From NCBI GenBank assembly GCA_050012075.1, contig JBEKHW010000003.1:14690-78689 (forward strand): 64,000 nt of DNA, given 5' to 3'. Shown here piece by piece: positions 39,649 to 54,370 of this stretch. The DNA comes from Candidatus Omnitrophota bacterium (GTDB taxonomy: Bacteria; Omnitrophota; Gorgyraeia; Gygaellales; Profunditerraquicolaceae). Numbering within the stretch: the stretch's first letter is position 1; each line of letters starts with the position of its first letter. The position numbers were made by a program, and so were the translations under genes. A model generated the notes under the pieces. It ran no database searches. It saw only the letters and a list, made by a program, of their open reading frames with translations, and had not been told where the DNA came from.

Positions 39649-40209
39649 TTAATAAATTTCAAAGCTTAATTTAGCGTCCAGGCTATCCGTAATTTTCTTC
39701 AATGTCAGTAAAGAAATATTCTCTCTTCCTGATTCAATACGCGATATTACCTGTTGGGAAATTTTTAACCTTTTTGCCAGCTTGTTTTGGGTTAAGCCAT
39801 TTTGCACGCGCACAGCTTTAATCTTGTCCGCCACTAATTTGCAGAATTCGTTCTCCGGTCTTAACGCAAAATTATTTTTGGGGATAAGCAGGCCTTTAGC
39901 CTTGTGTTTTTCCCGCAATTTCTCGTATATGGCCTGCCAGAATTCAATTCTCGGGTCATTCCATGCATTTTTGCGCATTTGCCTCTTTATCGCATTCCAA
40001 TTATTCACAAAAATAGCGGGTTTTAGATAAACGTTAAAAACCTCTTTCGGGGAATTTTTCCTGGATAACAACAGGGATGCCAAAGATAAAAAATGGGCGT
40101 GTTTTGCGTCCTTTAATATTGCCTTGCTCATACGCAAGGAAATATTCCTGTCCCAAAGCCAATCGTTTTTAATATTAGCTTTCTGTAATCTTTTCGACAA
40201 TTTTATCAA
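39649..40209 (-). CDS. XRE-family HTH protein (candidate antitoxin/regulator partner of the upstream nucleotidyltransferase)
   Basis: C-terminal HTH NGLTQNKLAKRLKISQQVISRIESGR. The start overlaps the upstream gene by 35 nt, and an internal Met is possible. Confidence 0.55.
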   Translation of the reverse strand: MIKLSKRLQKANIKNDWLWDRNISLRMSKAILKDAKHAHFLSLASLLLSRKNSPKEVFNVYLKPAIFVNNWNAIKRQMRKNAWNDPRIEFWQAIYEKLREKHKAKGLLIPKNNFALRPENEFCKLVADKIKAVRVQNGLTQNKLAKRLKISQQVISRIESGRENISLLTLKKITDSLDAKLSFEIY

Positions 40210-40906
40210 CCTCTTTCTTAAAATGACGTTCTATTTCAGGGTAATTTATATCTTTTTTTATTTTTAGTTCCAGCAGGCCTGTTTTTACCTCGAAACGGCT
40301 ATATGTCCTGAACCACCTGATAATGGATTCGCGTATTAACTGATTGCCGTATCGAAAGGAAAAATCAGACAAGCGCATAAAAATCTGCGACAGGCAGTAT
40401 AAGTCATAAAAATCCTTTGCTTCCTGCCTGCCGCCTTCTGAAATCTTCCTGCCTATATAGTCAGTCGTTTGATGGGTGCCGGTAGCAGCATAAATTTTCC
40501 TCAGATAAATATCCTCTAAAGATAGAATATTAATCCCGTTAACCGATTTAAACGGTTTTATGCAATCCAGGTAGTCCTCAATAAAATCTATCTTTAAGGT
40601 ATCCTTTCTATCTATAACAAGGGAATAAACCAATATTTTTATCTTTCCTTTACGCGATTCCTCAGATATTAATTTAATTTTTCTATTTAAAGAAGCCGAA
40701 AGCGCCGTGATTATCTCTACTATCCTTTTTTTGCTGAAATCCTTTGTAAAGAAATCCAGGTCGAGCGATTCCCTGTGGTTAAAATAAAACAGAGAAAGCG
40801 CTGTTCCCCCGCCCAAATAGAAATCGTCAATTCTTCCAGTAAGGGCTTTTAATACCTTATTTTGCGCCTCTATAATTTTAGGTAGCATACCCAATATATA
40901 CAGCAT
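40175..40906 (-). CDS. Nucleotidyltransferase, AbiEii/AbiGii toxin family (DUF1814-like)
   Basis: LGGGTALSLFY...SLDLDFF minimal nucleotidyltransferase motif, 243 aa. Confidence 0.65.
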   Translation of the reverse strand: MLYILGMLPKIIEAQNKVLKALTGRIDDFYLGGGTALSLFYFNHRESLDLDFFTKDFSKKRIVEIITALSASLNRKIKLISEESRKGKIKILVYSLVIDRKDTLKIDFIEDYLDCIKPFKSVNGINILSLEDIYLRKIYAATGTHQTTDYIGRKISEGGRQEAKDFYDLYCLSQIFMRLSDFSFRYGNQLIRESIIRWFRTYSRFEVKTGLLELKIKKDINYPEIERHFKKEVDKIVEKITES

Positions 40907-40969: not shown

Positions 40970-42268
40970 TTAAACCTTACGGAATACCGCGGCGGCGTTG
41001 TAGCCGGCAAAGCCGCAGGAGAGTTTCATTACGGTGGTAAGCTTTTTATTTTGTTGTTTACGGATAAGGTTTATGTTGTAGCGGCTGTCAAAATCATCGC
41101 AGTTTAAAGAAGCGGGGATTATCCCGTTTTGTAGCGCAAGGATCAGGATTATTGACTCAAGGATTGCGCTACCACCCAGGTTATGGCCCACATAGGGTTT
41201 AAACGCGGAAACAGGGGTTTTATTGCCGAACATATTCGTAATTGCCTTTGCTTCGTATTGGTCGGTTATTTTGATACCTACACCGTGGGGGTTGATTAAA
41301 TCTATATCTTGCGCTTTAATTTCACTATTTTTAAGAGCTCCCTCTATTGCTTTCCCGTAAGAATTACTTATCGGGTTAGGTAATATCAGCTTCCAGCCCT
41401 CAAGAGAGAATCCACCTCCCGTATATTCAGCATAAATATTGGCTCCTCTTTTTTTGGCATGATTCAACTCTTCAAGAAGAATGGCAGAGTATCCTTCGCC
41501 GAAAACTATCCCGTCTGCATTCTTGGAGAAGGGCTTAATCTTTCCGTCTTCAGCGTAAAGATTGCGTTCTTTAAACCATAGGTGTTTAAGCATGCCGGCA
41601 GGGTTATCCCCCCCTGCGATAATCGCTACGTCGGTATCTTTAAATTTGATTTGCGTGTAAGCGGCATCCAGGGCAAAAAGCCCGGAGGCACAGGCATTAT
41701 TGGTAAACAGGGAGTATCCGCGAAAGCCCATTGCCTTTGCTACCAGATATAGGTACATAAAGCTTTGCAGCTCCTGGCCGTAATCGGAAAACTTGCTGAA
41801 AAGGTGCTGATAGAAACCAAACTCCGACGGATTTTCCTTAAGCCGGGATTTTTCCTTAAAATAGTTTAATCCTTCTTTGGTGAGAGATTCGCAGAATGGC
41901 TCAAAGCCCGGGTGCTCTATTGTCAGGAAAAAGCCTATATTGTTATCATCACGGTTATAATCCAATCCGCTGTCTTTTAACGCTAGTTGAGTAGCGGCTA
42001 AAGGGTAAAGAAAATCATTATCTTCTCTTCCCTGCCTGAAGCCGGAGATTTCTTTGAGCACCTCTTTATCTATGCCGAAATTATTTATGTTAAAATCCTT
42101 AATCTTATGCATCCAGAAGCTGTCCCACAATTGCTTATCCAGGAAAATCTCTTCTTTATGAAGCCCGGATTTTTCCCCAAGGATAGATTTCCACAAAGCT
42201 TCTTTACCAAAACCAATGGCGCATAGCGGCCCCAATCCTGTTATTACAACTCTTCTTTCTTTAGGCAT
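40970..42268 (-). CDS. Beta-ketoacyl-[ACP] synthase family protein (active-site Cys present, atypical N-terminal insert)
   Basis: NNACASG (Cys), HGVG and VGHNLG (His) motifs. Confidence 0.75.
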   Translation of the reverse strand: MPKERRVVITGLGPLCAIGFGKEALWKSILGEKSGLHKEEIFLDKQLWDSFWMHKIKDFNINNFGIDKEVLKEISGFRQGREDNDFLYPLAATQLALKDSGLDYNRDDNNIGFFLTIEHPGFEPFCESLTKEGLNYFKEKSRLKENPSEFGFYQHLFSKFSDYGQELQSFMYLYLVAKAMGFRGYSLFTNNACASGLFALDAAYTQIKFKDTDVAIIAGGDNPAGMLKHLWFKERNLYAEDGKIKPFSKNADGIVFGEGYSAILLEELNHAKKRGANIYAEYTGGGFSLEGWKLILPNPISNSYGKAIEGALKNSEIKAQDIDLINPHGVGIKITDQYEAKAITNMFGNKTPVSAFKPYVGHNLGGSAILESIILILALQNGIIPASLNCDDFDSRYNINLIRKQQNKKLTTVMKLSCGFAGYNAAAVFRKV

Positions 42269-43472
42269 ATTTTTTAATCACAAGGGTAGCATTGTTTCCG
42301 CCGAATGCAAAGCCATTTTTTAAGGCGATGTTTACCTTTTTCTTTCTGGCAACGTTGGGGACGCAGTCAATATCGCATTCAGGGTCTGCTTCCTCAAAAT
42401 TTATAGTCGGCGGGATAATATCTTCTTTTACCGACAGGCAGCAGGCAGCCGCTTCGATTACAGAAGCAGCTCCCATCGCATGGCCAAGCGCTGATTTTAA
42501 GGCGGTCACCGGGATATCTCTATAGCGCTCCTTAAACACATTTTTTATGGCAAGGCACTCTGTTTTATCGTTAAGAGTGGTCCCTGTGCCGTGGGTGCTG
42601 ATATAATCCACGTCTTTATAACTTATATTACTTTCCCGCATCCCCTTCTCTATTGCTTTTGCTATACCTTCGGCGCTTGGGGCGGTAGGATGAAAGGCAT
42701 CGCAGGAGAGACCGTAACCTAATATTTCCGCGTAAATTGGCGCGTTTCTTTTTAAAGCCGAATCCAGGTCTTCAAGTAGCAGGGCTCCTGCCCCTTCACT
42801 TAACATCATACCTTTCCTGTTTTTATCAAAGGGCTGGCATTTTTCAGGCGCCATGGCATAAATACGCTGAAACCCCGCAAAGGCAAAATAAGAAAAAGAA
42901 TCACTGCCCCCGCAGAGAGCAAAATCAAGCTCTCCGTTTTTTATAAGATCGAAGCCATAACCGATAGCATAATTTCCCGCGGCGCAGGCAGTAGGAAAAA
43001 GGTAATTCGGTCCCTTAATCTTAAAATGCAGGCCTACGTTGGCGGAGATATTGTTGACCCCGGACTGCATTATTCTTTGCCTGTCCACATCCTTAAGCCC
43101 TCCCTTTGCCCAAACCTGCATCAGCTCTTCAAGCGGCTTTTCTCCGTTTGTAGTCCCCATAAAAACTCCGGTTTTTGATTTCGGCAGATTTTTCAGGGGA
43201 AGCATCGCGTCAGTTATGGCTAAAGAGGAAGCGGCAATGGCAAATTGCGAAGCCTTGCCCAGGAATTTTATTCTCCTTTTCGGGATAAATTCTTCCGGCT
43301 TGAAATTTCTTACCTCTCCTCCCCTATGGCACCTGAAGGCGCTGGTATCAAAACTGGTTACTTCGCTTATCCCGGATTTACCGGAAATGACAGAACGCCA
43401 GAATTGCTCCTTGCCGATTCCTACGGACGAAACAACTCCTATACCAGTAACTACTACTCTCCTTTTATCCAT
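42261..43472 (-). CDS. Beta-ketoacyl-[ACP] synthase II-like (FabF-like)
   Basis: TACAAG Cys, STHGTGT and LGHAMGAA His motifs. It overlaps both neighbours. Confidence 0.8.
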   Translation of the reverse strand: MDKRRVVVTGIGVVSSVGIGKEQFWRSVISGKSGISEVTSFDTSAFRCHRGGEVRNFKPEEFIPKRRIKFLGKASQFAIAASSLAITDAMLPLKNLPKSKTGVFMGTTNGEKPLEELMQVWAKGGLKDVDRQRIMQSGVNNISANVGLHFKIKGPNYLFPTACAAGNYAIGYGFDLIKNGELDFALCGGSDSFSYFAFAGFQRIYAMAPEKCQPFDKNRKGMMLSEGAGALLLEDLDSALKRNAPIYAEILGYGLSCDAFHPTAPSAEGIAKAIEKGMRESNISYKDVDYISTHGTGTTLNDKTECLAIKNVFKERYRDIPVTALKSALGHAMGAASVIEAAACCLSVKEDIIPPTINFEEADPECDIDCVPNVARKKKVNIALKNGFAFGGNNATLVIKKYA

Positions 43473-43908
43473 TTTTTGGTTTAACCCCGAAAGTTAAACT
43501 TGCCTTTGCCACTAGTTTATCCCCGACACGCGCGACGGCGTCAACCACTCCTGCGGTATCCATAACTTTCACGCAAGATACTTCCAGAATAAGTTTATCT
43601 CCCGGAAACACTGGCGCCCTGAATTCAGCTTTTACCCTGCCCAGGTAATAAATGGGATGCGCCTCGGCGATTTTGGGCTTACGCACATAATAAAGGATTA
43701 TTGCAGTTTGGGCCATTGCTTCTACGATAAGCACCCCAGGCATAACGGGATTGCCTGGAAAATGGCCGCGGAAAAAATCTTCATTATGCCTAACATACTT
43801 TGCCGCTGTTACTTTATCCTGGTTCTCGACCGCTATTACTTCGTCTATAAGCAGGAATGGGTCGCGGTGCGGAAGGATTGTTTTTATTTTTTCTTTATCC
43901 CAGAGCAT
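43465..43908 (-). CDS. 3-hydroxyacyl-[ACP] dehydratase FabZ-like
   Basis: [11 protein letters not shown]...[20 protein letters not shown]. Confidence 0.8.
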
Positions 43909-43913
43909 ACTCG

Positions 43914-44159
43914 TTACTCCTTTTTGGCGTTTTTAAAATAATCAATTATTTGTTTCAAATTCCTGATTTTGGGGATATCTTTCTCCGGAACGATAATCTT
44001 ATACTTTTTTTCAAAAGCAGCCACAATCTCAATTGCCTTAAGTGAATCTACTCCAAGCTCTGTAAAGAAATCCGCCTCGGGAGTAAGCTTTTCAACCGGC
44101 ACCTCGGTAATCTCTGAAACCATCTGCGTTAGTTCTAAATCAATATTCTCGTTCGCCAT
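43914..44159 (-). CDS. Acyl carrier protein
   Basis: 81 aa with the LGVDSL phosphopantetheine attachment motif. Confidence 0.8.
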
Positions 44160-44170
44160 TTTTTTCTCCC

Positions 44171-45418
44171 TTAGCTGTGGGTATGCCGGGATATGACGGC
44201 AGAGGCGTTATTGCCTCCCGGCCCAAAATTATTGATTAAAATATTATCGACTTTACACTTGCGCGCGCCTGTAGTGACATAATCAAGGTCGCAGTCATCA
44301 TCTTTTTCTTTGTAATTTATGGTCGGAGGTATAAAACCCTGCTCAATGCTCCCTAACGAAGAGATAATCTGGAATATCCCGGAGGCGCTAAAACTTTCTC
44401 CGATCATGGACTTGATGGCGCTGACCGGTATTTTTAAGGCAGCGCTGTTAAACACTTCTTTTATTGCCATAGTCTCCAGTTTATCCTGTATGACTACGGA
44501 ATTAGCCGCCGCGTTTATATAACTTATTTTTTCTTTATCTATACCGGAGTTATTTAAGACGGAAGAAATGCAATTTTTCAGGCCCTCTGCTTCAGGAGAA
44601 TATTTTCCGCTACGGTAAGCGTCAAAGCAGCTTTTTGTGCTTTTTATGCTCGCGTAAATCTTTGCCCCTCTTTTTAAGGCGTCGTCTTCGTTTTCAATCA
44701 GGATAACGCCGGCGCCTTCTCCTAAAATAATCCCGTTCCTGCGCTTGTCAAACGGGCAGCATATTTCTTCTCCTTTTATTCCGGCAAGGAATTCAATTTT
44801 ATGGAATCCGGCAAAACTCTGAAAAGACAATCCCTCAAGCCCGGCGAGCAGTATCGCCTTTGCCTTACCCCACTTTATAAAGTCAACGGCGTATTTTAAG
44901 GCATCTAAGCTTGCGGTAAATCCGGTAGATATAGTGGTGTTAAAACCTTTAATCTTAAACCAGATGGAGACCTGGCTTGAAGGCGCGTTCATTGTGGTGG
45001 CGGGAAATATAGCCGGGTTTACGAATTGAGGGCCGTCCTGTTCCGCCTCTTTACTGAATTCCGCTATATTCCACATTGCCGATAAAGTCGTTGCCGTAAC
45101 TACACCTATATCATCAGTATTACCTTCATTAATGTTGAGATTTGCGTCATCAAGGCAGAGTTTTACCGCGGAGCATAGGAACCTGGTGCTGCGGTCAAGG
45201 TTACGTAGCCCCTTGGGCCCCAGAAATTTTTCCGCTTCAAAATCAGGCACTTCCCCGGCAAGGTGCGCTTTAAAAAGCACCGGGTCAAATACGGTAATCG
45301 GCCTTATTCCTGAGCGGCCTTCTTTTAAGGCCTGCCAGAACTCTTCTTTGCCTATCCCGATAGGCGATACTACCCCTATGCCGGTTATAACCGCTTTATT
45401 ACTAGCAGAATTATCCAC
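44171..45418 (-). CDS. Ketosynthase-like protein lacking the catalytic Cys and both His residues (chain-length-factor-like)
   Basis: It aligns to the KS fold, but the active-site positions read STGFTAS (Cys to Phe), INAAANS (His to Ala) and IGESFS (His to Glu). Confidence 0.75.
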   Translation of the reverse strand: MDNSASNKAVITGIGVVSPIGIGKEEFWQALKEGRSGIRPITVFDPVLFKAHLAGEVPDFEAEKFLGPKGLRNLDRSTRFLCSAVKLCLDDANLNINEGNTDDIGVVTATTLSAMWNIAEFSKEAEQDGPQFVNPAIFPATTMNAPSSQVSIWFKIKGFNTTISTGFTASLDALKYAVDFIKWGKAKAILLAGLEGLSFQSFAGFHKIEFLAGIKGEEICCPFDKRRNGIILGEGAGVILIENEDDALKRGAKIYASIKSTKSCFDAYRSGKYSPEAEGLKNCISSVLNNSGIDKEKISYINAAANSVVIQDKLETMAIKEVFNSAALKIPVSAIKSMIGESFSASGIFQIISSLGSIEQGFIPPTINYKEKDDDCDLDYVTTGARKCKVDNILINNFGPGGNNASAVISRHTHS

Positions 45419-46163
45419 TTTGTATTGATAACCCTCCGTCGATAACTAATGTTTGTCCTGTGATATAATTTGCCGCGTCACTTATCAGGAATTTTACTGC
45501 TTTCGCCACTTCTTCAGGCCTGCCGAATCTTCTTAAGGGTATATGTTTCATCAGCCCATCTTTCAGTGGTTCTTTGAGTCCGCTTACCATATCGGTTTCA
45601 ATGAAACCAGGGGCAACAGCATTTACCCTTATCCCGTATTTAGCTACTTCCCTTGCCAGGGATCTGGTAAAGCCGATTATCCCTGCTTTTGACGCGGCAT
45701 AATTGGTTTGCCTGGCAACCCCTGTTATCCCGCTTATCGAAGATATATTCACGATTATGCCGCTGTTTTGTTTTATCATGCCGGTTATTACCGCGCGGGT
45801 AAGGTTAAAAACACCTCCGAGGTTAGTGTCTATCACTTTCTGCCAGTCATTTTTTTCCATAAATGCCAGCGCCTTATCGTTGATTATCCCGGCATTATTT
45901 ATTACGATATCAAGCCCGCCGAAAGTTTTCTTTGTTTCTTCAACCCAGGCCGTAACGGCGTCAAAATCGCTGATATCTACGCGTGATGCCTTGGTTTTTA
46001 TTCCTAACCGCGTAATCTCGGCTAAAAGTTTATCCGCCTCTTCTTTATTATTCAGGTAGCTAAAGGCAATATTCAGGCCTTGGCGGGCTAACTCCAATGC
46101 AATCTGCCTGCCTATGCCCCTGCTTGCCCCGCTTACAATCGCTATTTTATTTTTTAAGTCCAT
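45411..46163 (-). CDS. fabG: 3-oxoacyl-[ACP] reductase (SDR)
   Basis: IAIVSGASRGIGRQIA, NNAG, and a YAASKAG catalytic triad. Confidence 0.85.
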   Translation of the reverse strand: MDLKNKIAIVSGASRGIGRQIALELARQGLNIAFSYLNNKEEADKLLAEITRLGIKTKASRVDISDFDAVTAWVEETKKTFGGLDIVINNAGIINDKALAFMEKNDWQKVIDTNLGGVFNLTRAVITGMIKQNSGIIVNISSISGITGVARQTNYAASKAGIIGFTRSLAREVAKYGIRVNAVAPGFIETDMVSGLKEPLKDGLMKHIPLRRFGRPEEVAKAVKFLISDAANYITGQTLVIDGGLSIQSG

Positions 46164-46539
46164 CGGTATCTATATTCCTCCTGACTGCTTCCAGAAAATC
46201 ATGGGTATCAAAGGGTTTTAATATGTATTCGGCGACTTTAAGGTCAAGCGCGTTTTTATAACTTTGCTCGTCGGCGTAGCCGGTAATCAGTATTTCTTTT
46301 ACCGGCGGCTTACCGGAGTCTTTGAGCGCCTGGCGTATCTTTTTAATCGTCTCTATGCCGTCTAAATGTGGCATCCTGATATCGCATACTATCAAATCCA
46401 GCTCTGTGGTTCTTGATTTTTCCGCCGCGTCCTCCCCATCGGCGGCAACCATGGCATTGTAGCCCTCTTTTTGCAAAAGCTTATGCAGCGTCTTGGTTAT
46501 CAGTCCCTCATCGTCGATTATTAAAATATTCTTTCCCAT
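46147..46539 (-). CDS. Single-domain response regulator receiver
   Basis: ILIIDDEG and LIVCDIRMPHLDG motifs, no output domain. Confidence 0.8.
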   Translation of the reverse strand: MGKNILIIDDEGLITKTLHKLLQKEGYNAMVAADGEDAAEKSRTTELDLIVCDIRMPHLDGIETIKKIRQALKDSGKPPVKEILITGYADEQSYKNALDLKVAEYILKPFDTHDFLEAVRRNIDTDGLKK

Positions 46540-46540
46540 T

Positions 46541-48709
46541 CTAACTCTCCTTCTTCGGCAGGGATACCGTAAAGACCGAGCCCCTTCCTTCTTCTGAATG
46601 AACGGTAATCGTCCCTTTATGCTTATTTATTATTGTTTGACAAATAGACAGCCCTAACCCGGTTCCTTTTCCCACTTCTTTTGTGGTAAAGAAAGGGTCG
46701 AATATTTTCGGCATTGTCGCTTTCGGTATGCCCATTCCTTCATCTTTAACCGACATATGGATCCACTTGCCGTTTTTTGAAAGCGATATGCAGACCTCTC
46801 CGGTTTTTTTAACTGCCCTGATCGCGTCGCGGGCGTTTAAAACCATATTTGTAAGCACCTGTTCCAGTTCATGTTGATTGCCGTTGACCAGATAATCGTC
46901 TTTTTTGGCGTCGATAATTATGCCGACGTTTTCCTGGTGGAGTTGATAGCCCAGGAACGCTTCCGCATCCTTGATTACATCCAGCAGGTTTACTTCTGAA
47001 AAAGGAGTGTCTTCAAGGGGTTTCTTGGCATAAGCCATGAGTTTCTGGACGATGGTGCGGCAACGCTTGGTGGCTTCTTCGATAAGCCCCAGAGATTCTT
47101 TTGAATCCGCGTCCAGGTTAGTCCTTTCGTCGATAAGCATCTGGACGTTAGTGAGAATCGCAGTCAGAGGGTTATTGATTTCATGCGCGACTCCTCCTGC
47201 CAGGGTACCTACGGTAGCAAGTTTCTCCGCATGGGTGAGTTGTTTTTGCACGTCAACTAATTCTTTAGTACGTTGCCTTACCTGCTCTTCTATATTTTCA
47301 TAAAGAAGTGAATTTGAGATGGCAATCGTCGCCTGGTTTTTCAGTGTCCTTAAGAAATGCAGTTCTGCCGCGTCGTAACGTTTAAGGTTTGATTTCCTCG
47401 CCAGGTTTATTACGCCAAGAAGTTTCTCGTTAAGGATAACAGGTATGATTACGACAGCTCCTGTAAGGTTGAAATATTCTCTTGCCCTGTCTTTTATGGA
47501 TGAATAAATTGGGTCTATCTCGATAAAATCGCGATGTAGTATCTTATCTCTTTTTGCAAGCCATGACAGGAATTCACTTTCCGTGCTCATTCGCGTGATT
47601 TTACTTTGGTTTGTGCTGGCATTAGCCAATATGTACTCTTTCCTCTGTTCGTTATAAATCAGTATATCTATATGTTGAGGGTAAAGCGTATCGTAAATAG
47701 TAGATTCAATGCGTTGGATGAGCTGGTTTAGGCCTTTCAGGTGCACGAGGTCTTCGGTAAACTTACGCGCGATTTCATCAAGGTCAGCCTGCCTCCTCTG
47801 GAAAAAATGGTCGATCTTTGGTTGTATTTCGCGTAAATACAGCGCCAATATCAGGAAGCCGGCAAGCCAGAATAACGTCTCAAGTAGAGACGAACCTTGT
47901 ATATACGGATAGGCCCATCGGTAGATAAGAAAAAGCGGTATTATTGCCAGGGAGAATGTAAGCAGCCACATCGTGGTTTTATGGATAACCGTCTCTATAT
48001 CAAAGGTCCGGTATTTGACGATGGAATAGGCAACTATCAGGATATAAATAAGCATCGAGATATATCCGAATGGATATAAAGGGTAATGTAAGAATTTCGG
48101 TACGAAGTCAAGGGATGCGGTAAATGCGATGAGCGTGGCTATGGTTACCACCTGCATCTGCCTTTTTTTTGCCGGAAGAGTTTCTTTTCTGTAGGAAAGA
48201 TAGAGCTTCCCGAAGCCCGCAAAGAACTGGAAGGCGAAAAACCCCAGGAATAATATCGTCTCCGGACGGTAAACAGGGTAATATCCCCAGAAATATCTTG
48301 TCGCGGTATAGGGCAGAATGAATTTATCCGTGGTCACGGCCAGAAAATAAAACAGGAAAGATATGCCGTAATTTAAGAGGACTAGCGCCTTCTTCTCTTC
48401 AAATTCCTGCGACCAGGCAACCGCGAACAGGTAGACACTGGGCATTATATTCACTACACCGAAGAAGGTAAAATAACGGTACCAGAAAAGAGCGGTTTCC
48501 GGAGCACGGCTTGAATAGACCACGGAACTCATAAGAAGCCAGAAGGTGACGCTAAAACACTGCAGGAAGAAAGCTATGTTTATGATTGATTTTCTGTTTT
48601 GGGCCAGGACAAAAAGGCCGATAAAAATAATGACCGCGCTTACTGAAAATACCGCAAGCGCGTAAGGGTTGAAATAGTAGCTTGAGATCTGAAGAAGAGG
48701 GTTATGCAT
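46541..48709 (-). CDS. Sensor histidine kinase (multi-TM sensor, GAF, HisKA, HATPase_c), a paralog of the 34392-36575 kinase
   Basis: H-box HAEKLATVGTLAGGVAHEINNPL and G-box GTGLGLSI. Confidence 0.8.
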   Translation of the reverse strand: MHNPLLQISSYYFNPYALAVFSVSAVIIFIGLFVLAQNRKSIINIAFFLQCFSVTFWLLMSSVVYSSRAPETALFWYRYFTFFGVVNIMPSVYLFAVAWSQEFEEKKALVLLNYGISFLFYFLAVTTDKFILPYTATRYFWGYYPVYRPETILFLGFFAFQFFAGFGKLYLSYRKETLPAKKRQMQVVTIATLIAFTASLDFVPKFLHYPLYPFGYISMLIYILIVAYSIVKYRTFDIETVIHKTTMWLLTFSLAIIPLFLIYRWAYPYIQGSSLLETLFWLAGFLILALYLREIQPKIDHFFQRRQADLDEIARKFTEDLVHLKGLNQLIQRIESTIYDTLYPQHIDILIYNEQRKEYILANASTNQSKITRMSTESEFLSWLAKRDKILHRDFIEIDPIYSSIKDRAREYFNLTGAVVIIPVILNEKLLGVINLARKSNLKRYDAAELHFLRTLKNQATIAISNSLLYENIEEQVRQRTKELVDVQKQLTHAEKLATVGTLAGGVAHEINNPLTAILTNVQMLIDERTNLDADSKESLGLIEEATKRCRTIVQKLMAYAKKPLEDTPFSEVNLLDVIKDAEAFLGYQLHQENVGIIIDAKKDDYLVNGNQHELEQVLTNMVLNARDAIRAVKKTGEVCISLSKNGKWIHMSVKDEGMGIPKATMPKIFDPFFTTKEVGKGTGLGLSICQTIINKHKGTITVHSEEGRGSVFTVSLPKKES

Positions 48710-50273
48710 TAACGGCTTCCTTTATACTTTCTACCATCGCAGTATCTATCTGTTTATGCCCCCAGTAGAAATCCGCGAGGACAAAACCGTGTTTTTCTCC
48801 GAGCGACTTTATCTCCTGCATCTTTTCAGGGGTGATATTTCCCCTTCCGAAGCTGAAGTTTTCATAACGTTTTTCAAGGGCAAGTATTATTGATTCGGAA
48901 AAACATCCGTAAAGGGCGTTGGTAGCGGGAAGGCCCACGTCAATGGGAAAAAGAATCGACGTAGGAGGTTTGCTTAATCCTCCGGAAAAAATGAAAATAT
49001 CCTTTCTGTCCGTCGGGGTGTAAGAGATATTTTTCGGGTATCCTACGTCGCAGATTATTGAGCCGGACTTAAACCAATCAACTTTCAGTATTGAAGAAGT
49101 GGCGCTTGCCGCTGAAATCACAATATCCGCATCCCTTACAGCTGCTTGGTTGTCGGTAGTCGCCACAATTTTAGCTTTTCTATGGCGGGAAAGCTCTTTG
49201 TTCATACGTGTAAGGTTAATCTTGGTCCTGCCGGTTATGGTAAGCTGCCTTACTTTATCCGTAAGGACCCTGGCGCAGGCGCTTCCGATATCGCCGGTCC
49301 CGCCTACTACAGCTATTTTTAATCCGGAGATATCTTTCCCCATGAGTTTAGTTGCTTTTAGCACCCCTTCTACTGCCATGGCCGCGGTAAAACTATTTCC
49401 TGTCGTCACCGCGACATCCACCTGTTCAGCTATCTCCTGGCCCACTCTTTCTGCCACAATAGAAGTGAATCCACCAAGGGTAACTATCCCCACGCCTTTT
49501 TTCTCCGCGAGCTTACAGGCCTTGACTACTTTGGAGAATACGACCCAGATATCTTTTTCTATCATATCTGGGATGAAGGTAGCGATTATAAACGTCCCGT
49601 TAACAGAATCTCCGGTTTTAGATTTGAAATCCAGGATGTCGTAAAGTTTAAATGACGGCGTAAGGTGGAAAAGTTGCCCGAGGAATTCTCGGGAAGGAAG
49701 TTTTATCCCAGGATTCAACACATGGAAACAGCTTTCCAGGTGATGATAATTATAAAGATGGCCGATAATTCCGAAACCGGCGATTTTTTCCGTATTCCCT
49801 TTCCTGTAACTTATGTATTTCAGTGATATGAGTTTTCTTTCTATCGCCTCAAGGATCGCTTCAAAACTCAAAACGATAAGTTTCCTTATATAATTATCGG
49901 CGAAATCCTTTATCGCTGGCACCCCGACCCTAAGGTGCACTATCACCGATACTTCTGTGCCTTCCGGATGCGGGCTAAAGCGCCATTCCCCGCTAAATTC
50001 TTCCAGGTCACCTTCTTTTAAGCGGAAAGAAATCTTATTTTGATTCAATTCCAGAGTATCCTCTTCTACCCAACTTATCGGCACTTTGTCTACCTGGATG
50101 CGCCACTTAGTAACCATTTTATTCCCGCTCTTGTTAAGTACCGTTGCCTCTCTAACAGAGGGTATAAAGGAAGGAAATTCCCAGACCCGGGTTAAGATAC
50201 GTATTACGCGCCATTTCTCGGCGGGTATTACGCGCGAAACTCTTATCTCTAGTAATTCGTTATCCGGCATCAA
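48702..50273 (-). CDS. SRPBCC (START/Bet v1-like) domain fused to a long-chain acyl-[ACP] reductase (cyanobacterial AAR, COG5322) homolog
   Basis: The C-terminal roughly 370 aa match the AAR block pattern: FGIIGHLYNYHHLE, TLGGFTSIV, TTGNSFTAAMAV, a Rossmann motif IAVVGGTGDIGSA, GYPKN, and FSFGRGNITPEKMQEI...HGF. The N-terminal roughly 145 aa is SRPBCC-like. Confidence 0.7.
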   Translation of the reverse strand: MMPDNELLEIRVSRVIPAEKWRVIRILTRVWEFPSFIPSVREATVLNKSGNKMVTKWRIQVDKVPISWVEEDTLELNQNKISFRLKEGDLEEFSGEWRFSPHPEGTEVSVIVHLRVGVPAIKDFADNYIRKLIVLSFEAILEAIERKLISLKYISYRKGNTEKIAGFGIIGHLYNYHHLESCFHVLNPGIKLPSREFLGQLFHLTPSFKLYDILDFKSKTGDSVNGTFIIATFIPDMIEKDIWVVFSKVVKACKLAEKKGVGIVTLGGFTSIVAERVGQEIAEQVDVAVTTGNSFTAAMAVEGVLKATKLMGKDISGLKIAVVGGTGDIGSACARVLTDKVRQLTITGRTKINLTRMNKELSRHRKAKIVATTDNQAAVRDADIVISAASATSSILKVDWFKSGSIICDVGYPKNISYTPTDRKDIFIFSGGLSKPPTSILFPIDVGLPATNALYGCFSESIILALEKRYENFSFGRGNITPEKMQEIKSLGEKHGFVLADFYWGHKQIDTAMVESIKEAVNA

Positions 50274-50853
50274 GCATTCCTTTTATTGCGTTCCTGACTT
50301 TAAACATGCCTTCCTGCAAATATATATCTTCAATGATGTCTTCCATTTCTTTAAGCATGTATATAGGCCTACCTACCTTTACCTTCAAGGGGAAAAGTTT
50401 CGGTAATTTTGCCGTTATGGGATAAGCCTCGAAAGTCCCTAAGATTGCCGCGGGCACAATGGGCCTGCCTGTTTTTATGGCTAAAAGCGCTGCCCCCCTC
50501 CTGAATTCCAGAAGTTTTCCTTCGTGGCTTACTCCGCCTTCAGGAAAGATACCGACGTTGCGGTTTTTAAGCAGTAATTCCAGGGCTTTATTAGAAGCGC
50601 TCCCCCCGGGAAGAGCCTCGCTTACATGCAAAAACCATTTTAGCAAGGGTATCCCGTAAAGCATCCTCATGGCTATGCAATGCACTTTTACGGGAAGCGC
50701 CACCATCATTACTAAAGGGTCCAGATAACTATTGTGGTTTGCCACGATGATAAAGTTACTTTTCTTAGGTAAATTTTCCAGCCCTTCAACCTTTAGCCTG
50801 AAAAATAATTTGAAAATAGGGGTAAAAAATGTTTTAAATATCCAGTACCACAT
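50260..50853 (-). CDS. PlsC-family acyltransferase (1-acyl-sn-glycerol-3-phosphate acyltransferase-like)
   Basis: NHNSYLDP (HX4D variant) and FPEGG motifs. The start is taken at the internal Met MWYWIFK. Confidence 0.7.
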   Translation of the reverse strand: MWYWIFKTFFTPIFKLFFRLKVEGLENLPKKSNFIIVANHNSYLDPLVMMVALPVKVHCIAMRMLYGIPLLKWFLHVSEALPGGSASNKALELLLKNRNVGIFPEGGVSHEGKLLEFRRGAALLAIKTGRPIVPAAILGTFEAYPITAKLPKLFPLKVKVGRPIYMLKEMEDIIEDIYLQEGMFKVRNAIKGMLDAG

Positions 50854-50857
50854 GTTT

Positions 50858-51769
50858 TTATAACAACGGCGCCTCAGGCACCCAGATTTCAAAGCCATGC
50901 CGTGCCGCGATATCAGCTATCTCCTCAAGGTTGTCCGGGTTTATAGCGTTGCCTAAATAATTCAGGAAAAACTTTTTTGCCAGGGTTAAAAGTATTGTTT
51001 CTGCAAGCTGAGTCCGGATAACAGCCCGCGGAAGGCGAGTCCTTATTTTTGAATCTAACGGATAAGGCAATTTTACCAATCCGCTCCTGATGCGGGCTAT
51101 GTCGTTACGGATTCCTTCGCGGGGTATCCCGTTACCAGAAAATAGTTCACAAAGGATTGCCCCGGGTTTCATCTTATCTATAATGTCGGCTGTTTTATCA
51201 AGGCATGCCGCAAGGTTTACGGCAATGTCCGCTTCGTTAATCGATTCGGCGGGCCTACCCGCGTAATTTGATAATTTTTTTTCACAGAGTCTACCCAGGA
51301 CACTTTCCCTTCCATTGATATAAAAAGACAGGTTTTTAATCTCCTTATCTTTTATCCTGACATAGCGGTAAAGCGCCTCAAGGACCGACCAGGCAGTGAA
51401 TGCGTTTCCGTCGGTAACGGTTACTTTTATTTTTTTGCTTATTTTATCGTGTATTTTTTCGGCAACGCAAGAGAGATGCTCATCCAGGCCTATCACTGCC
51501 ACTCCCAGCTTTTCGCAAAAAATAAGCGTATCTATAAGCAGGTTTTGTGAGTCCGTATCTGTGGCGCAAAGTCGTGGGCATAATACAATGTAGCCGGTTA
51601 TTTCTTCTCCTTGAAGTGATTTTATACCTTTAATATACCCTACCTTTATGGGCTTGTTTCTCTTTAGTATTGTTTTTATGATAAAAGACGGCAATAACCG
51701 CACAGAAGGCCAGATATCCTTTATATTCTCTATAGTCCCAGGGCTAACTATATAGGCAAAAGTGTCCAT
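50858..51769 (-). CDS. AAR/COG5322-like paralog lacking the NAD(P)-binding glycine motif
   Basis: It shares blocks with the neighbouring AAR homolog (VTVTDGNAFTAWSVLEAL, and a C-terminal ...PDNLEEIADIAARHGF), but the GxGxxG position reads FYINGRESVLGRL. Confidence 0.5.
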   Translation of the reverse strand: MDTFAYIVSPGTIENIKDIWPSVRLLPSFIIKTILKRNKPIKVGYIKGIKSLQGEEITGYIVLCPRLCATDTDSQNLLIDTLIFCEKLGVAVIGLDEHLSCVAEKIHDKISKKIKVTVTDGNAFTAWSVLEALYRYVRIKDKEIKNLSFYINGRESVLGRLCEKKLSNYAGRPAESINEADIAVNLAACLDKTADIIDKMKPGAILCELFSGNGIPREGIRNDIARIRSGLVKLPYPLDSKIRTRLPRAVIRTQLAETILLTLAKKFFLNYLGNAINPDNLEEIADIAARHGFEIWVPEAPLL

Positions 51770-51784
51770 ATTCGTTTCCTGTCG

Positions 51785-52000
51785 TTAGGCGCTCTCAATA
51801 AGCGATTTCCGTCTTTCTTTTGGCTGGAGGACGTAACTGGATTTTTCTTTAATCCATCTCTCGATATATTTCTTATGGAATCGCCAGTCAGTGCCGATTT
51901 TGAACGCCGGGATTTTTCCCTCCCTGGCATACTTGTGCACTGTGAGAGGATGAATCTTCAGATATTCCGCAACCTCTTTTGCAGTCAGAATTTCTTTCAT
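51785..52000 (-). CDS. Excisionase-family (MerR-superfamily) HTH DNA-binding protein
   Basis: 71 aa with LTAKEVAEYLKIHPLTVHKYAREGKIPAFKIG, the TIGR01764-type HTH. Confidence 0.65.
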   Translation of the reverse strand: MKEILTAKEVAEYLKIHPLTVHKYAREGKIPAFKIGTDWRFHKKYIERWIKEKSSYVLQPKERRKSLIESA

Positions 52001-52036
52001 ATCTCACCTCATTTAGGTATATTTACGATAATCATA

Positions 52037-52065
52037 TGTATACTAGGTAAGCTTCATGTTGTCAA
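52037..52065 (-). promoter_or_regulatory. Strong sigma70-like promoter for the HTH gene and the downstream lipid operon
   Basis: On the minus strand: TTGACA, a 17 nt spacer, then TATACA, and a GAGGTGAG RBS before the ATG. Confidence 0.45.
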
Positions 52066-52084: not shown

Positions 52085-52116
52085 ATAAAAAAGGCGTGCT
52101 TCTATGCACGCCAAAA
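52085..52116 (-). terminator. Rho-independent terminator after the lipoyl-domain gene
   Basis: GGCGTGC-TTCTAT-GCACGCC hairpin, followed on the minus strand by UUUUUUAUU. Confidence 0.55.
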
Positions 52117-52144: not shown

Positions 52145-52387
52145 CTACTTCTCTTCCTCTTCCACTATCCCTAACACAGCGCCTACAGTTACGGTGTCTC
52201 CTTCGTGAAAGACAATTTCTCTGAGTATACCGTCACAGGGGCTGGTGACATTGAAAGTTGCCTTGTCTGTGGTGATTTCAACCACGTCTTCTTTCTCGTT
52301 GACGCTATCACCTTCCGTACGCATCCAGTAGGAAACCGTTGCTTTCTCAATACCTTCGCCTAATTCTGGTAAAATAATCTTTGTCAT
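52145..52387 (-). CDS. Stand-alone biotin/lipoyl attachment domain protein
   Basis: MTKIILPELGEGIEKATV...ITTDKATFNVTSP, a lipoyl-lysine motif. The start is taken at the internal Met. Confidence 0.7.
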   Translation of the reverse strand: MTKIILPELGEGIEKATVSYWMRTEGDSVNEKEDVVEITTDKATFNVTSPCDGILREIVFHEGDTVTVGAVLGIVEEEEK

Positions 52388-52401
52388 CTTTTGCCTACCT
52401 T

Positions 52402-53082
52402 TCAATAGACAGCAGGACAAGGATGGTTTTCAGCGTAAAATACAGCTGTCCCTAGTTTATAAACCGCTTTGATTTCAGAAATCAGGGATTTCTTGACATC
52501 ATCTATATCTATTTTTCTGCGCAAAATATCTTCCAGGGATGTCATTTCTATATCCATTCCGCATGGCCGTATCAGGCGAAAATTCCCAAGGTCGTCACTT
52601 GTGACGTTTATGCTCATCCCGTGAAAAGTAACCCAGTTTTTAACGGCGATACCGATGGATGCGAGTTTACGGTTTCTAAACCATACGCCGGTTAATCCGG
52701 CTTTTCTTTCTGCTTCTACCCCAAAACTTGCGGCAACCTTTAATGCCACCTCTTCCAGTGACCTCAGGAACCAATGAAGGTCTTTCTTCAGGAACTCCAG
52801 GTTAAATACAGGATAAGCCGTAACCTGCCCCGGGCCATGATAGGTAAAATCGCCGCCTCTTTCTACTTTATAAACCCTTATCCCTTTCTCCCTGGCATTC
52901 TTTTCCGTGGCTAAAATATTTTTTATACCCGCACTTCTGCCCCAGGTAAATACCGGGTAATGCTGACAGATAACCAGGTTGAAAGGGAAAGGGGAATTAA
53001 CAGTTTCTAGCAAAAGCTTTTTCTGAAAATCCCATGATTCCTGGAAATGAGTTACCCCCAGGTCAAATATCCTTATCTCCAT
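52402..53082 (-). CDS. lipB: Lipoyl(octanoyl) transferase
   Basis: RGGDFTYHGPGQ and KLASIGIAV LipB motifs. The start is taken at MEIRIFDLG. Confidence 0.8.
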   Translation of the reverse strand: MEIRIFDLGVTHFQESWDFQKKLLLETVNSPFPFNLVICQHYPVFTWGRSAGIKNILATEKNAREKGIRVYKVERGGDFTYHGPGQVTAYPVFNLEFLKKDLHWFLRSLEEVALKVAASFGVEAERKAGLTGVWFRNRKLASIGIAVKNWVTFHGMSINVTSDDLGNFRLIRPCGMDIEMTSLEDILRRKIDIDDVKKSLISEIKAVYKLGTAVFYAENHPCPAVY

Positions 53083-54370
53083 AAGCTGCTTCCTGTATTG
53101 CCTCAGATAAAGTCGGATGGGCAAAAATAGTATTTTTAAGAGCGGTGATCCCTAATCCTGAAGAGATTGTTAGTGTCAGGATATTTATAAGTTCTGTTGC
53201 GGCCGGGCCGATGATAGAAGCCCCGAGAAGCTGAGCCGTGTTCTTATCCGCAATTATTTTTATAAAGCCCTCTGCCTCTTCTTTAATCCTTGCCATTCCG
53301 TTTCCCAGGAAATCAAACCTGTAAATTTTGGCGTCTATATTGTTTTTAGCAGCCGTATCTTGGTCCATACCGACAAATGCAATCTCCGGGTCAGTAAAAA
53401 TACAGTTAGGCACCGCGTTATTTTGGGCCTTCTGCGGCTTATCCGGGCAAGAGATGTTATACGCGGCTAGTATTCCCTGGTAGCGCGCAAAATGCGCAAG
53501 CATTATCCGGCTGCTACAATCACCGGCAGCATAAATACTCGATATATTCGTCCTTAAATAATCATCAACTATGATCCTGCCCTTCTCGGTCTTTATCCCC
53601 AGATCTTCCAGGCCCAGTCCCGAGGTATCAGGAATTCTACCTACGCAAACAAGTATCTTTGCATAATTATTGACACCAAACCCGGAGGCATCCGTATTTG
53701 TATGGACCAGTATATTTTTCTTCTTAAAGATTATCTCAAGCTTCTTAGCTACCTCTTTATCTAAGCCGGGAAGTAACTGCGGCATTTTTTCAACCAGGGT
53801 TACTTTTACTCCGAAAGCGGAAAATAGCCCTGCGAATTCGCAGCCGATAACTCCCCCGCCTATGATTAAGATTGAATCCGGCATTTCCTGTAAGTTTAGG
53901 ATGTCTGTACTAGAGAGTATTTTCTTCCCGTCAAATCTAAAAGATGGCAGCTCAAAAGGCCGTGAGCCGGTGGCAATAAGAATATTCTTTGTTTTTAAAA
54001 TTTTGCCGTCAACTTTTATCTCCTCCGGAGACAGTATCCCGGCTCCGGAGTTTATAAAATCCACGCCTTTAGAGATAAACTGCATACCTTGGCGTAACTG
54101 CGCGACTATTTTTTCTTTGCGTGCCTGGATTTTCTGGAAATCAAACCTATACTCTTTTGTTTCTATGCCAAAAATCTGGGATTTCTTGATTGAGGTGTAT
54201 ATTTTTGCGGACTGGATAAGTGTTTTAGTGGGGATACATCCGGTGTTCAGGCAGGTTCCGCCAAGGAGTGCCTTTTCTATCAGGCAGGCTTTTAGGCCCA
54301 GTTTTTTAGCTTTTAATGCTGCATTAAAACCTGCCCAACCTGACCCGATTACACAAAGGTCATAATCCAT
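53063..54370 (-). CDS. lpdA: Dihydrolipoyl dehydrogenase
   Basis: YDLCVIGSGWAGF FAD motif, a GGTCLNTGCIPTK redox disulfide, an NAD-binding domain and a dimerisation domain. Confidence 0.85.
   Translation of the reverse strand: MDYDLCVIGSGWAGFNAALKAKKLGLKACLIEKALLGGTCLNTGCIPTKTLIQSAKIYTSIKKSQIFGIETKEYRFDFQKIQARKEKIVAQLRQGMQFISKGVDFINSGAGILSPEEIKVDGKILKTKNILIATGSRPFELPSFRFDGKKILSSTDILNLQEMPDSILIIGGGVIGCEFAGLFSAFGVKVTLVEKMPQLLPGLDKEVAKKLEIIFKKKNILVHTNTDASGFGVNNYAKILVCVGRIPDTSGLGLEDLGIKTEKGRIIVDDYLRTNISSIYAAGDCSSRIMLAHFARYQGILAAYNISCPDKPQKAQNNAVPNCIFTDPEIAFVGMDQDTAAKNNIDAKIYRFDFLGNGMARIKEEAEGFIKIIADKNTAQLLGASIIGPAATELINILTLTISSGLGITALKNTIFAHPTLSEAIQEAAYGDKDI

Follow-up and report, generated by a model that had tools for sequence, protein, structure and literature searches.

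A cluster of genes on the minus strand of a Candidatus Omnitrophota contig (GenBank assembly GCA_050012075.1, contig JBEKHW010000003.1, positions 14,690 to 78,689; this stretch of 64,000 nucleotides is hereafter called the window) raises the question of what is made by an operon that couples fatty-acid-type chain-building enzymes to an acyl-(acyl carrier protein) reductase and a two-component system, and of whether such a pathway is new. The phylum has almost no cultured members. A preliminary description had proposed the locus as a candidate undescribed specialised-lipid pathway, and all of the genes and domains named there were recovered on the minus strand by open reading frame (ORF) calling and Pfam and NCBIfam scans, from which our domain calls derive; solved relatives are sequence matches in the PDB. 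The operon does encode a dedicated lipid pathway resembling the type II route to fatty acids (FAS II) or type II polyketide synthase (PKS) systems and not a canonical fab operon. The word ‘undescribed’ has to be given up, since the core of the operon is sister to Cluster I of anammox bacteria and ‘ladderane’ clusters have already been reported in metagenome-assembled genomes (MAGs) of Omnitrophota. We conclude that the locus is a known orphan cluster class in a new variant, joined to a fusion–kinase module without description in the literature searched.

Overall organization of the operon

From position 52000 down to 40970 on the minus strand, successive genes overlap or lie at most 15 nucleotides apart. 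The operon is a composite of two separable modules. Module A consists of an HTH_17 gene, a degenerate paralog (pseudo-AAR) of the acyl-acyl carrier protein reductase (AAR), a PlsC-like acyltransferase, an SRPBCC–AAR fusion, a histidine kinase of the seven-transmembrane (7TM)-GAF type and a receiver. Module B consists of FabG, a dead ketosynthase (KS) corresponding to a chain length factor (CLF), an acyl carrier protein (ACP), FabZ, a KS, a second KS and CrtI-like flavoproteins. The composite nature of the operon follows from its relatives, in which a single chromosomal site after LipB is occupied, depending on the genome, by module A alone, by module B alone or by the two together. The cluster consistently follows the same housekeeping block at this site, with genes for a T2SSE-like ATPase, LeuD, an isocitrate/isopropylmalate dehydrogenase, malate dehydrogenase, Lpd, a LipB-like protein and a lipoyl/biotinyl protein (window 52145–54370 and loci L027, L035, L070, L122, L137, L143, L154 and L158). 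Module B is missing at the same site in many genomes, and gene content is highly variable.

Module B and its relation to anammox Cluster I

Cluster I (kuste3603–3608) comprises amxACP, amxFabZ, amxFabF2, amxFabFmut, a phytoene-dehydrogenase homolog and a B12 radical SAM enzyme, and is the putative ladderane cluster of anammox bacteria. The amxFabFmut protein has recently been described as the CLF of the anammox FabF heterodimer, which decarboxylates malonyl-ACP and shows a C6–C8 preference in crosslinking (bioRxiv 10.64898/2026.05.19.726425). As judged from their sequences, the chain-building enzymes of the window are the closest relatives of the putative ladderane genes outside anammox bacteria, and its active ketosynthase KSa (42261–43472, minus strand) and its CLF (44171–45418, minus strand) are ortholog-level sister groups of amxFabF2 and amxFabFmut, respectively. 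The best solved relative of KSa is 9s5h_B (E = 4.1e-142; 477 bits versus 351 for the next match, the ishigamide KS Iga11, 6kxd, E = 6.9e-104, which itself ranks ahead of all FabFs), and that of the CLF is 9s5h_C (E = 2.8e-115 versus 3e-75 for the next match; 388 versus 257 bits). We identify 9s5h_C as amxFabFmut because its Val/Asn/Tyr/Gly/Lys/Glu pattern matches the table of Rattray et al. for kuste3606. KSa has an intact Cys-His-Lys-His set; the CLF reads Phe/Ala/Lys/Glu, with Phe, Ala and Glu in place of the catalytic Cys, His and His, and keeps the Lys/Glu pattern of kuste3606 and kuste2805. The third ketosynthase, KSb (40970–42268, minus strand), also retains Cys-His-His, so that the earlier proposal of one CLF and two active ketosynthases is borne out. 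KSb has a divergent N-terminal region of ∼175 residues, only its residues 176–431 align with known ketosynthases, and it belongs to a separate long-branched clade (50 of 50 bootstraps) found in a subset of the loci. The FabZ dehydratase (43465–43908, minus strand) has amxFabZ structures as its top five PDB matches and contains the catalytic His and Glu. Its Ile aligns with Ile69 of amxFabZ, a Gly-to-Ile change that narrows the substrate tunnel and has been described as amxFabZ-typical; the tunnel Ile is present in 15 of 15 anammox FabZs and in 17 of the 28 FabZs from Omnitrophota-type clusters.

A scan of species-representative genomes, with amxFabFmut as the first query, gave 590 relatives. 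These rank from the anammox genera (62–94% identity) through Omnitrophota CLFs (45–50%) and a few MAGs labelled Nitrospirota, Desantisbacteria and Planctomycetes to ordinary FabFs (35–40%), and all CLF-type ORFs are without the catalytic triad. In a neighbour-joining tree the anammox and Omnitrophota KS proteins form one clade and the CLFs another, each recovered in 50 of 50 bootstraps. MAGs labelled Nitrospirota or Desantisbacteria (L046, L047, L049, L050, L052, L056 and L058) contain a FabG-CLF-ACP-FabZ-KS set 55–67% identical to that of the window, closer than many Omnitrophota copies, which indicates mis-binning or lateral transfer. Further KS–CLF pairs lie outside Cluster I (L067 and L068, both from Scalindua, as well as L063 and L073); one of the extra pairs is kuste2805-like (Phe/Asn/Lys/Glu) and another is part of a methyltransferase-FabD-FabG-FabZ-KS-CLF operon of an unclassified bacterium.

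The flavoprotein of Cluster I has a counterpart in PDH1 (38140–39600, minus strand), a CrtI/CrtISO-family protein that shares 33% identity with the Brocadia ‘phytoene dehydrogenase’ homolog of Cluster I over its full length (E = 7e-75); its best solved CrtI-family match scores 88 bits and it falls below the crtI_fam cutoff. The second CrtI-like flavoprotein, PDH2 (36588–38129, minus strand), shares 28% identity with PDH1 across the N-terminal 300 residues and is 40% identical to the gene that follows KSb in L003. The two CrtI-like genes of the preliminary description thus exist; they lie outside the stretch 40970–52065 to which they had been assigned and are split from the KS genes by an AbiEii/HTH_3 pair, unlike the adjacent flavoprotein of Cluster I. 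PDH2 is rich in Lys, Asn and Ile, and the region 35800–38200, comprising PDH2 and the 7TM-coding end of the second kinase gene, has a G+C content of 27–36% compared with ∼44% windowwide, which suggests foreign origin or different constraints. In sister clusters, 4Fe-4S ferredoxin-type and nitroreductase-family proteins are encoded between a thioester reductase and the CrtI-like gene (L053 7814–8695, L051 14730–15302 and L044 16382–17221) and are possible electron partners of the flavoprotein. One such ferredoxin-type protein has a very weak flavodoxin-like N-terminus; none of these proteins is encoded in the window.

Beyond the KS and CLF clades, the FabZ Ile and the flavoprotein, the window shares with Cluster I the local gene order ACP-FabZ-KS. 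It differs in having the CLF upstream of the ACP instead of after the KS, in lacking the B12 radical SAM gene and in a series of additions: FabG, a third KS, a second flavoprotein, the AAR fusion, the pseudo-AAR, the acyltransferase, two 7TM kinases and the receiver. The order ACP-FabZ-KS-CLF-flavoprotein-B12 radical SAM is found in 11 of 11 complete anammox loci. None of the 13 complete Omnitrophota loci has the radical SAM gene, and no Radical_SAM domain was found in the 64-kb window; FabG is present in 11 of these 13, a flavoprotein in eight, a reductase in eight and a 7TM kinase in nine. That four or five gene families of Cluster I have orthologs here, and that antiSMASH labels such clusters ‘ladderane’, would be expected if this non-anammox bacterium made true ladderanes. 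We disfavour this explanation and consider it extremely unlikely, as the radical SAM gene is missing from the window and from the complete Omnitrophota loci, and as all reports of ladderanes to date come from anammox bacteria, to which the host does not belong. A B12 radical SAM enzyme does occur in some module A loci, between fusion and kinase (L131, L139, L141 and L143), and was rejected as a Cluster I ortholog: it is only 36% identical to the anammox enzyme, whereas more than 120 clusters, none with Omnitrophota in its name, are closer to that enzyme, at 52% identity or above.

The antiSMASH ‘ladderane’ class, available since version 3, was built on Rattray's clusters, and clusters of this class have already been reported, and found expressed, in Omnitrophota MAGs; these reports include no functional analysis and leave the function open. 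The core of module B is therefore a known orphan family. With respect to known biosynthetic families, then, half of the operon is known, while its gene content is not near-identical to theirs, with no B12 radical SAM gene and with added genes. Recent work describes Cluster I as ‘unique to ladderane-producing bacteria’ and its CLF as ‘the first in a fatty acid pathway’, and notes that anammox bacteria are not genetically tractable (bioRxiv 10.64898/2026.05.19.726425). Ladderane biosynthesis is a long-standing open question, and the value of the Omnitrophota cluster here is comparative, in that it sets the genes common to both groups apart from the radical SAM gene. Since the KS, CLF, Ile-type FabZ and flavoprotein have Omnitrophota sister orthologs and the adjacent radical SAM enzyme does not, the ladderane-specific step is narrowed to the latter. 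The Omnitrophota cluster is a natural version of Cluster I minus the radical SAM gene, and its product would reveal the substrate of cyclobutane formation.

The KS/CLF pair, FabG, FabZ and ACP might also be the main FAS II system of the cell, with the acyltransferase as its PlsC. FabG (45411–46163, minus strand; TIGR01830 score 308.7, cutoff 297.75) and FabZ (151.1, cutoff 113) pass NCBIfam equivalog cutoffs, the chromosomal site beside core genes is conserved in several Omnitrophota, and the fusion is 64–82% identical across the 21 orthologs compared, with more than 100 clusters at E < 1e-238. A CLF-FabG-FabZ set stands alone among riboflavin and ligase genes in some genomes, and in another lineage a KS–CLF pair lies in a FabD-FabG-FabZ operon (L063). 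However, the ACP (43914–44159, minus strand; PF00550, DSL motif) is below all NCBIfam AcpP cutoffs (55 versus 71) and KSa misses the FabF equivalog cutoff (TIGR03150, 408 versus 493.75). As had been noted for fabD, fabH and fabI, the domain annotations across the 64-kb window include no FabD, FabH or FabI/K, and no acetyl-CoA carboxylase (Acc) genes are found there. In anammox bacteria, moreover, the orthologous cluster exists alongside a canonical FabF and ACP that are separate from it, and both the gene content and the presence of module B vary between genomes as described above. We regard a housekeeping role as improbable. In the Omnitrophota loci with a lone CLF (L028–L031, L037, L041 and L060), the dead CLF, FabG and FabZ are without an adjacent KS or ACP, lie between riboflavin genes and a DNA ligase gene, and have Cys and not Ile at the FabZ tunnel position.

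The absence of an enoyl reductase from the cluster is a feature shared with ishigamide (Iga11/Iga12) and aryl-polyene (APE) systems, as are the KS/CLF heterodimer logic and the ketoreductase plus dehydratase. A highly reducing type II PKS of this kind would yield a conjugated polyenoyl-ACP, which the acyltransferase could attach to a lipid or which could leave as a polyenal. In favour of such a polyene pigment or lipid are an LPLAT-type acyltransferase as in APE clusters, the polyene-forming Iga11 as second-best solved relative of KSa, and an Old Yellow Enzyme adjoining the fusion in one relative. The likeness to aryl-polyene and flexirubin clusters (KS/CLF, ketoreductase, dehydratase, ACP and acyltransferase) is limited to generic features. 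No starter-activating enzyme, ammonia lyase, thioesterase, MMPL exporter or LolA-like carrier is encoded in the window, FlxB (261.8, cutoff 340) and ApeI-like (22, cutoff 28.5) models remain below cutoff, and the FabZ tunnel residue argues for short substrates; a photoprotective pigment is also unexpected in an organism that is probably an anaerobe of dark habitats. A polyene product therefore seems quite improbable, in keeping with the earlier distinction of the locus from aryl-polyene and flexirubin clusters. Models for APE, flexirubin, dialkylresorcinol, cispentacin and polyunsaturated fatty acid (PUFA) clusters all scored far below their cutoffs.

Module A and the reductase fusion

The central protein of module A is a fusion of an SRPBCC (Polyketide_cyc) domain with an AAR-like reductase (48702–50273, minus strand). 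The alignment of its C-terminal 330 residues with Synechococcus AAR (6jzq, E = 7.6e-36) runs from end to end. In this alignment Cys457 corresponds to the catalytic Cys294 of AAR and GGTGDIGSA to the NADPH motif GATGDIGSA, so that the AAR-specific residues hold up under a careful alignment, as the assignment in the preliminary description demands. The Cys and the NADPH motif are invariant in 22 fusion orthologs, and the Cys also in eight diverse fusions down to 28% identity. The fusion is 100% identical to a protein from an Omnitrophota MAG and has more than 100 orthologs, 65–82% identical, in the same phylum. It shares with cyanobacterial AAR (TIGR04058; 6jzq/6jzu) the fold family, catalytic Cys, NADPH glycine motif and full-length alignment, but scores only 173.8 bits against that equivalog (cutoff 449.7). 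It differs by its N-terminal SRPBCC domain, by the lack of an ADO partner, no ADO domain being annotated in the window, and by having a 7TM histidine kinase as its constant partner; the locus is, as had been argued, not a cyanobacterial-type alkane locus.

The second-best NCBIfam match of the fusion is PigE (N-terminal reductase domain). PigE (prodigiosin, 4ppm) and koreenceine KecF share with it the COG5322-type domain and a proposed release of an ACP-bound chain as aldehyde; in KecF, an AAR-like domain has been proposed to release ACP-bound type II PKS chains in this way, and the kec cluster likewise has KS/CLF pairs and a dedicated ACP. In PigE and KecF, however, the domain is joined to an aminotransferase and its aldehyde product undergoes transamination, whereas the window protein is fused to SRPBCC and no aminotransferase accompanies it. 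The koreenceine paper alone was relevant in our literature search, which found no description of module A or of the fusion–kinase pairing and no paper on an Omnitrophota acyl-ACP reductase.

An aldehyde or alcohol as the form in which the chain leaves the ACP is suggested by other Omnitrophota clusters, in which unrelated reductase families are swapped in the same context. In many of them a thioester reductase (PF07993/TIGR01746) is encoded between the KS and the flavoprotein, replacing the fusion or occurring besides it, and in others an alpha/beta hydrolase occupies the same position. The myxobacterial ether-lipid enzyme ElbD consists of carrier, NAD_binding_4 reductase and acyltransferase domains, and the window appears to offer these three functions as well, in its carrier protein, its thioester reductase and its PlsC-type acyltransferase. 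This is a functional parallel; the window proteins are discrete and their reductase is of the unrelated AAR family. Sister Omnitrophota clusters use an NAD_binding_4 reductase. Homologs of ElbD have been reported in 93 of 267 Black Sea Omnitrophota MAGs.

The acyltransferase (50260–50898, minus strand) is of the PlsC/Aas type (PF01553, E = 2.1e-27), with an HX4D motif (HNSYLD) and FPEGG. Its top NCBIfam model is acyl-[ACP]--phospholipid O-acyltransferase, although it scores below the cutoff of that model, and its hydrophobic N-terminus suggests that it is membrane-associated. In most window-like loci it lies immediately 5′ of the fusion, and in the window the two genes overlap. The pseudo-AAR (50858–51769, minus strand; 303 amino acids, no Pfam match) is 24% identical to the fusion (BLASTP, E = 4e-19) and has Gln at the position of the catalytic Cys and has lost the GxGxxG motif for NADPH, which agrees with its earlier description as degenerate; it was found in nine of the 60 fusion-centred loci that were scored (see below). 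The first gene of the unit (51785–52000, minus strand) encodes a small DNA-binding protein of the excisionase/MerR-like HTH_17 family (PF12728, E = 5.7e-17), which heads related Omnitrophota loci too. Relatives of the reductase are also fused to HTH_17 and PilZ, to PilZ or to GAF (P0134, P0135, P0136 and P0247); in P0134, HTH_17 is joined to PilZ-SRPBCC-AAR.

Pairing of the fusion with histidine kinases

The fusion gene is followed by HK1 (46541–48709, minus strand), a histidine kinase of domain order HisKA_7TM-GAF-HisKA-HATPase with the H-box AHEINNPL, and by a receiver-only response regulator (46147–46539, minus strand; PF00072, E = 1.8e-26) in which the acidic pocket DD, the Asp of CDIRMP and Lys108 are all present and which has no DNA-binding output domain. 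A second 7TM-GAF kinase, HK2 (34392–36575, minus strand), closes the unit; it is a full-length paralog of HK1 (24% identity, E = 1e-57), and the H-box is intact in both. A kinase follows the PDH gene in seven of the nine Omnitrophota loci with sufficient sequence. In the literature searched, HisKA_7TM appears in two surveys of archaeal two-component systems only.

A metagenome scan provided 80 further fusion loci, of which the 60 with at least 2.5 kb of downstream sequence were scored. A 7TM-type kinase is encoded within four genes downstream of the fusion in all 60 and is directly adjacent in 36, which makes the two-component system an obligate partner of the fusion. Distant fusion homologs (40–43% identity) are likewise directly followed by a HisKA_7TM kinase, and the pair is kept at 27–47% identity in loci without KS/CLF or acyltransferase. 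The two-component system thus belongs to the fusion enzyme and is not merely a regulator of the operon. Its presence had been recognized before; given this linkage and a receiver without a DNA-binding domain, its role goes beyond the conditional regulation of expression then suggested. The inserts between fusion and kinase are mostly redox enzymes (GMC oxidoreductase, an SDR/3-beta-HSD-like protein, radical SAM and Old Yellow Enzyme), several of them of kinds that act at the alcohol or aldehyde level. In the commonest frame among 32 window-like loci, the order is HTH_17-(pseudo-AAR)-acyltransferase-fusion-(X)-HK1-RR-[methyltransferase]-HK2, where RR is the response regulator; in the window, the genes from FabG to PDH2 occupy the methyltransferase slot between RR and HK2.

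Some neighbours of fusion–kinase pairs carry receivers of their own. A receiver–aldehyde dehydrogenase (ALDH) fusion is encoded in L008 (15464–17428) and L106, an ORF in L164 matches the ALDH portion only, and a receiver–ketosynthase fusion is encoded in L009 (16622–18328). Such fusions imply control of lipid enzymes by phosphorylation. In L122 (15130–17265), an SRPBCC–LuxD-like acyltransferase–methyltransferase fusion lies beside another 7TM-type kinase, and the same locus encodes a PilZ–methyltransferase.

The invariance of the linkage invites an explanation in terms of a signal synthase and its receptor. The fusion, together with the methyltransferase in relatives, would make a hydrophobic aldehyde, alcohol or methyl-ester signal that the adjacent 7TM kinases detect, while module B would supply a bespoke short acyl chain to be tailored by the flavoproteins. 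CqsA/CqsS, LuxM/LuxN and PhcB/PhcS are synthase/kinase pairs of this sort, and the window may be likened to them in the arrangement of synthase and kinase genes. Such a role accords with the linkage in 60 of 60 loci, with the persistence of the pair in loci that have no KS/CLF or acyltransferase, with the variable tailoring enzymes between synthase and kinase, and with the presence of several kinases and receivers per locus. Receiver–ALDH fusions could remove the signal, the RR-methyltransferase-HK2 arrangement and the SRPBCC–LuxD-like–methyltransferase fusion of relatives fall into place, and the anammox orthologs and the FabZ Ile point to short chains. On the other hand, Omnitrophota show a tight coupling of the acyltransferase with the fusion, no exporter is encoded in the window, and the receivers have no output domains. 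No case of quorum sensing has been documented in the phylum, and the analogies to Cqs, Lux and Phc are of gene arrangement only. We consider a signal synthase/receptor pair possible without being probable; as an explanation it is nearly as good as the membrane lipid proposed below.

Proposed pathway

We tentatively favour a kinase-coupled pathway in which a dedicated acyl chain is assembled and then released by two routes, most plausibly into an alkyl(ether)- or alcohol-containing membrane lipid. The catalytic residues of KSa, KSb, FabZ, FabG, the acyltransferase, the AAR domain, both kinases and the receiver are intact. By orthology with the anammox enzymes, KSa and the CLF would form a heterodimer that is self-primed by malonyl-ACP decarboxylation and elongates the chain on the ACP of the cluster, with FabG and the amx-type FabZ processing each cycle; the FabZ tunnel Ile and a conserved Phe in the CLF tunnel suggest short or medium chains, which KSb may extend. 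As the cluster contains no enoyl reductase, the chain would either stay unsaturated or become a substrate of the CrtI-like flavoproteins, which might desaturate, isomerise or saturate it, or of a reductase whose gene lies elsewhere. The fusion could then reduce the acyl-ACP thioester with NADPH to the fatty aldehyde and possibly on to the alcohol, with the SRPBCC domain holding the hydrophobic substrate or product, and the PlsC/Aas-like enzyme would acylate a glycerolipid from acyl-ACP. The 7TM-GAF kinases may sense the lipid product or the state of the membrane, and the receiver-only regulators may adjust the activity of the enzymes and not their transcription. The redox genes beside the fusion in relatives, including the receiver–ALDH fusions, support a product at the aldehyde level. 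We favour a membrane lipid because the acyltransferase and reductase are tightly paired and because the triad of ACP, reductase and acyltransferase resembles ElbD as well as eukaryotic FAR1/GNPAT.

Several observations count against this pathway. No ether-forming enzyme of the AGPS, PlsA/PlsR or Ger type is encoded in the window. Chains that stop at C6–C8, as hinted by anammox, would make a membrane-lipid role less likely unless KSb extends them. Most relatives have module A without module B, and what they most often carry between RR and HK2 is a methyltransferase, which agrees with a small-molecule signal no less well than with a membrane lipid. The scores of the ACP do not single out amxACP, with 51 bits for the canonical ACP 2ehs and 48 bits for amxACP (7qv0_D), its second-best PDB match, and the margin of amxFabZ over canonical FabZ is small (127 versus 106 bits). 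An AlphaFold2 model of the fusion (mean pLDDT 66, pTM 0.50, with the N-terminal half of the AAR domain below 50) is too poor for conclusions on interdomain channelling.

The pairing of reductase and kinase suggests either that two-component systems control lipid enzymes directly or that lipid signals of a new class exist, as supported by the receiver–ALDH and receiver–ketosynthase fusions and by the fusion of HTH, PilZ or GAF domains to the reductase. In a broader hypothesis, which we hold to be rather doubtful, SRPBCC–AAR and the 7TM-GAF kinase, a pair that is widespread in Omnitrophota and related uncultured lineages, would act either as an unrecognised synthase and receptor of a lipid signal or as a membrane-lipid homeostat with the enzyme product as ligand of the kinase. 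The pair in the window would have captured an ancestral KS/CLF-FabZ-flavoprotein module that anammox bacteria later combined with the B12 radical SAM enzyme. If so, the Omnitrophota product would show what the ‘pre-ladderane’ module makes alone.

Boundaries and surroundings of the cluster

A terminator-like GC hairpin on the minus strand (52093–52112; a 7-bp stem with six GC pairs, followed by a T-run, TTTTTTATTG) sits between ORF 52145–52420 and the HTH_17 gene. This hairpin terminates the upstream lipoyl-protein/LipB/Lpd unit and sets the upstream boundary of the cluster. It alone marks that boundary, as a promoter scan gave the same number of hits as shuffled sequence (44 versus 44.8) and the promoter that had been placed at the head of the operon finds no support in it.

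The genes directly upstream, for a lipoyl/biotinyl-domain protein, a LipB-like octanoyltransferase and dihydrolipoyl dehydrogenase, raise the alternative that module B makes C8-ACP for these LipB and lipoyl-carrier genes, that is, octanoyl-ACP for lipoylation in the manner of mitochondrial FAS. The C6–C8 preference of the anammox orthologs and the conserved FabZ Ile would suit this role. We nevertheless judge it very unlikely: the strong hairpin separates the two units, the same upstream block adjoins loci without module B, the locus has neither an enoyl reductase nor LipA, and the AAR fusion, flavoproteins and kinases would be left unexplained.

The AbiEii toxin and HTH_3 genes between KSb and PDH1 (39649–40906, minus strand) form a toxin–antitoxin pair that is probably outside the pathway. 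A homologous pair, 33–38% identical, is found at the equivalent relative position in L070, which weakens the idea of a fresh random insertion. An MNT/HepT pair lies between the fusion and the radical SAM gene in L131, L139, L141 and L143, and toxin–antitoxin pairs are recurrent within these lipid clusters.

The remainder of the window also carries core metabolic genes. Genes for cobalamin salvage and for a BtuFCD/TonB receptor system lie at ∼3–12 kb, and those for an MGDG-synthase-like glycosyltransferase, a lipid A-type acyltransferase and a GT2 protein at 12.9–15.6 kb. Positions 1–32000 further include a receiver plus an HD-GYP-like protein, a 761-residue PGAP1-like lipase, and a type II secretion/pilus operon that contains a gene for a 23S rRNA intervening-sequence protein.

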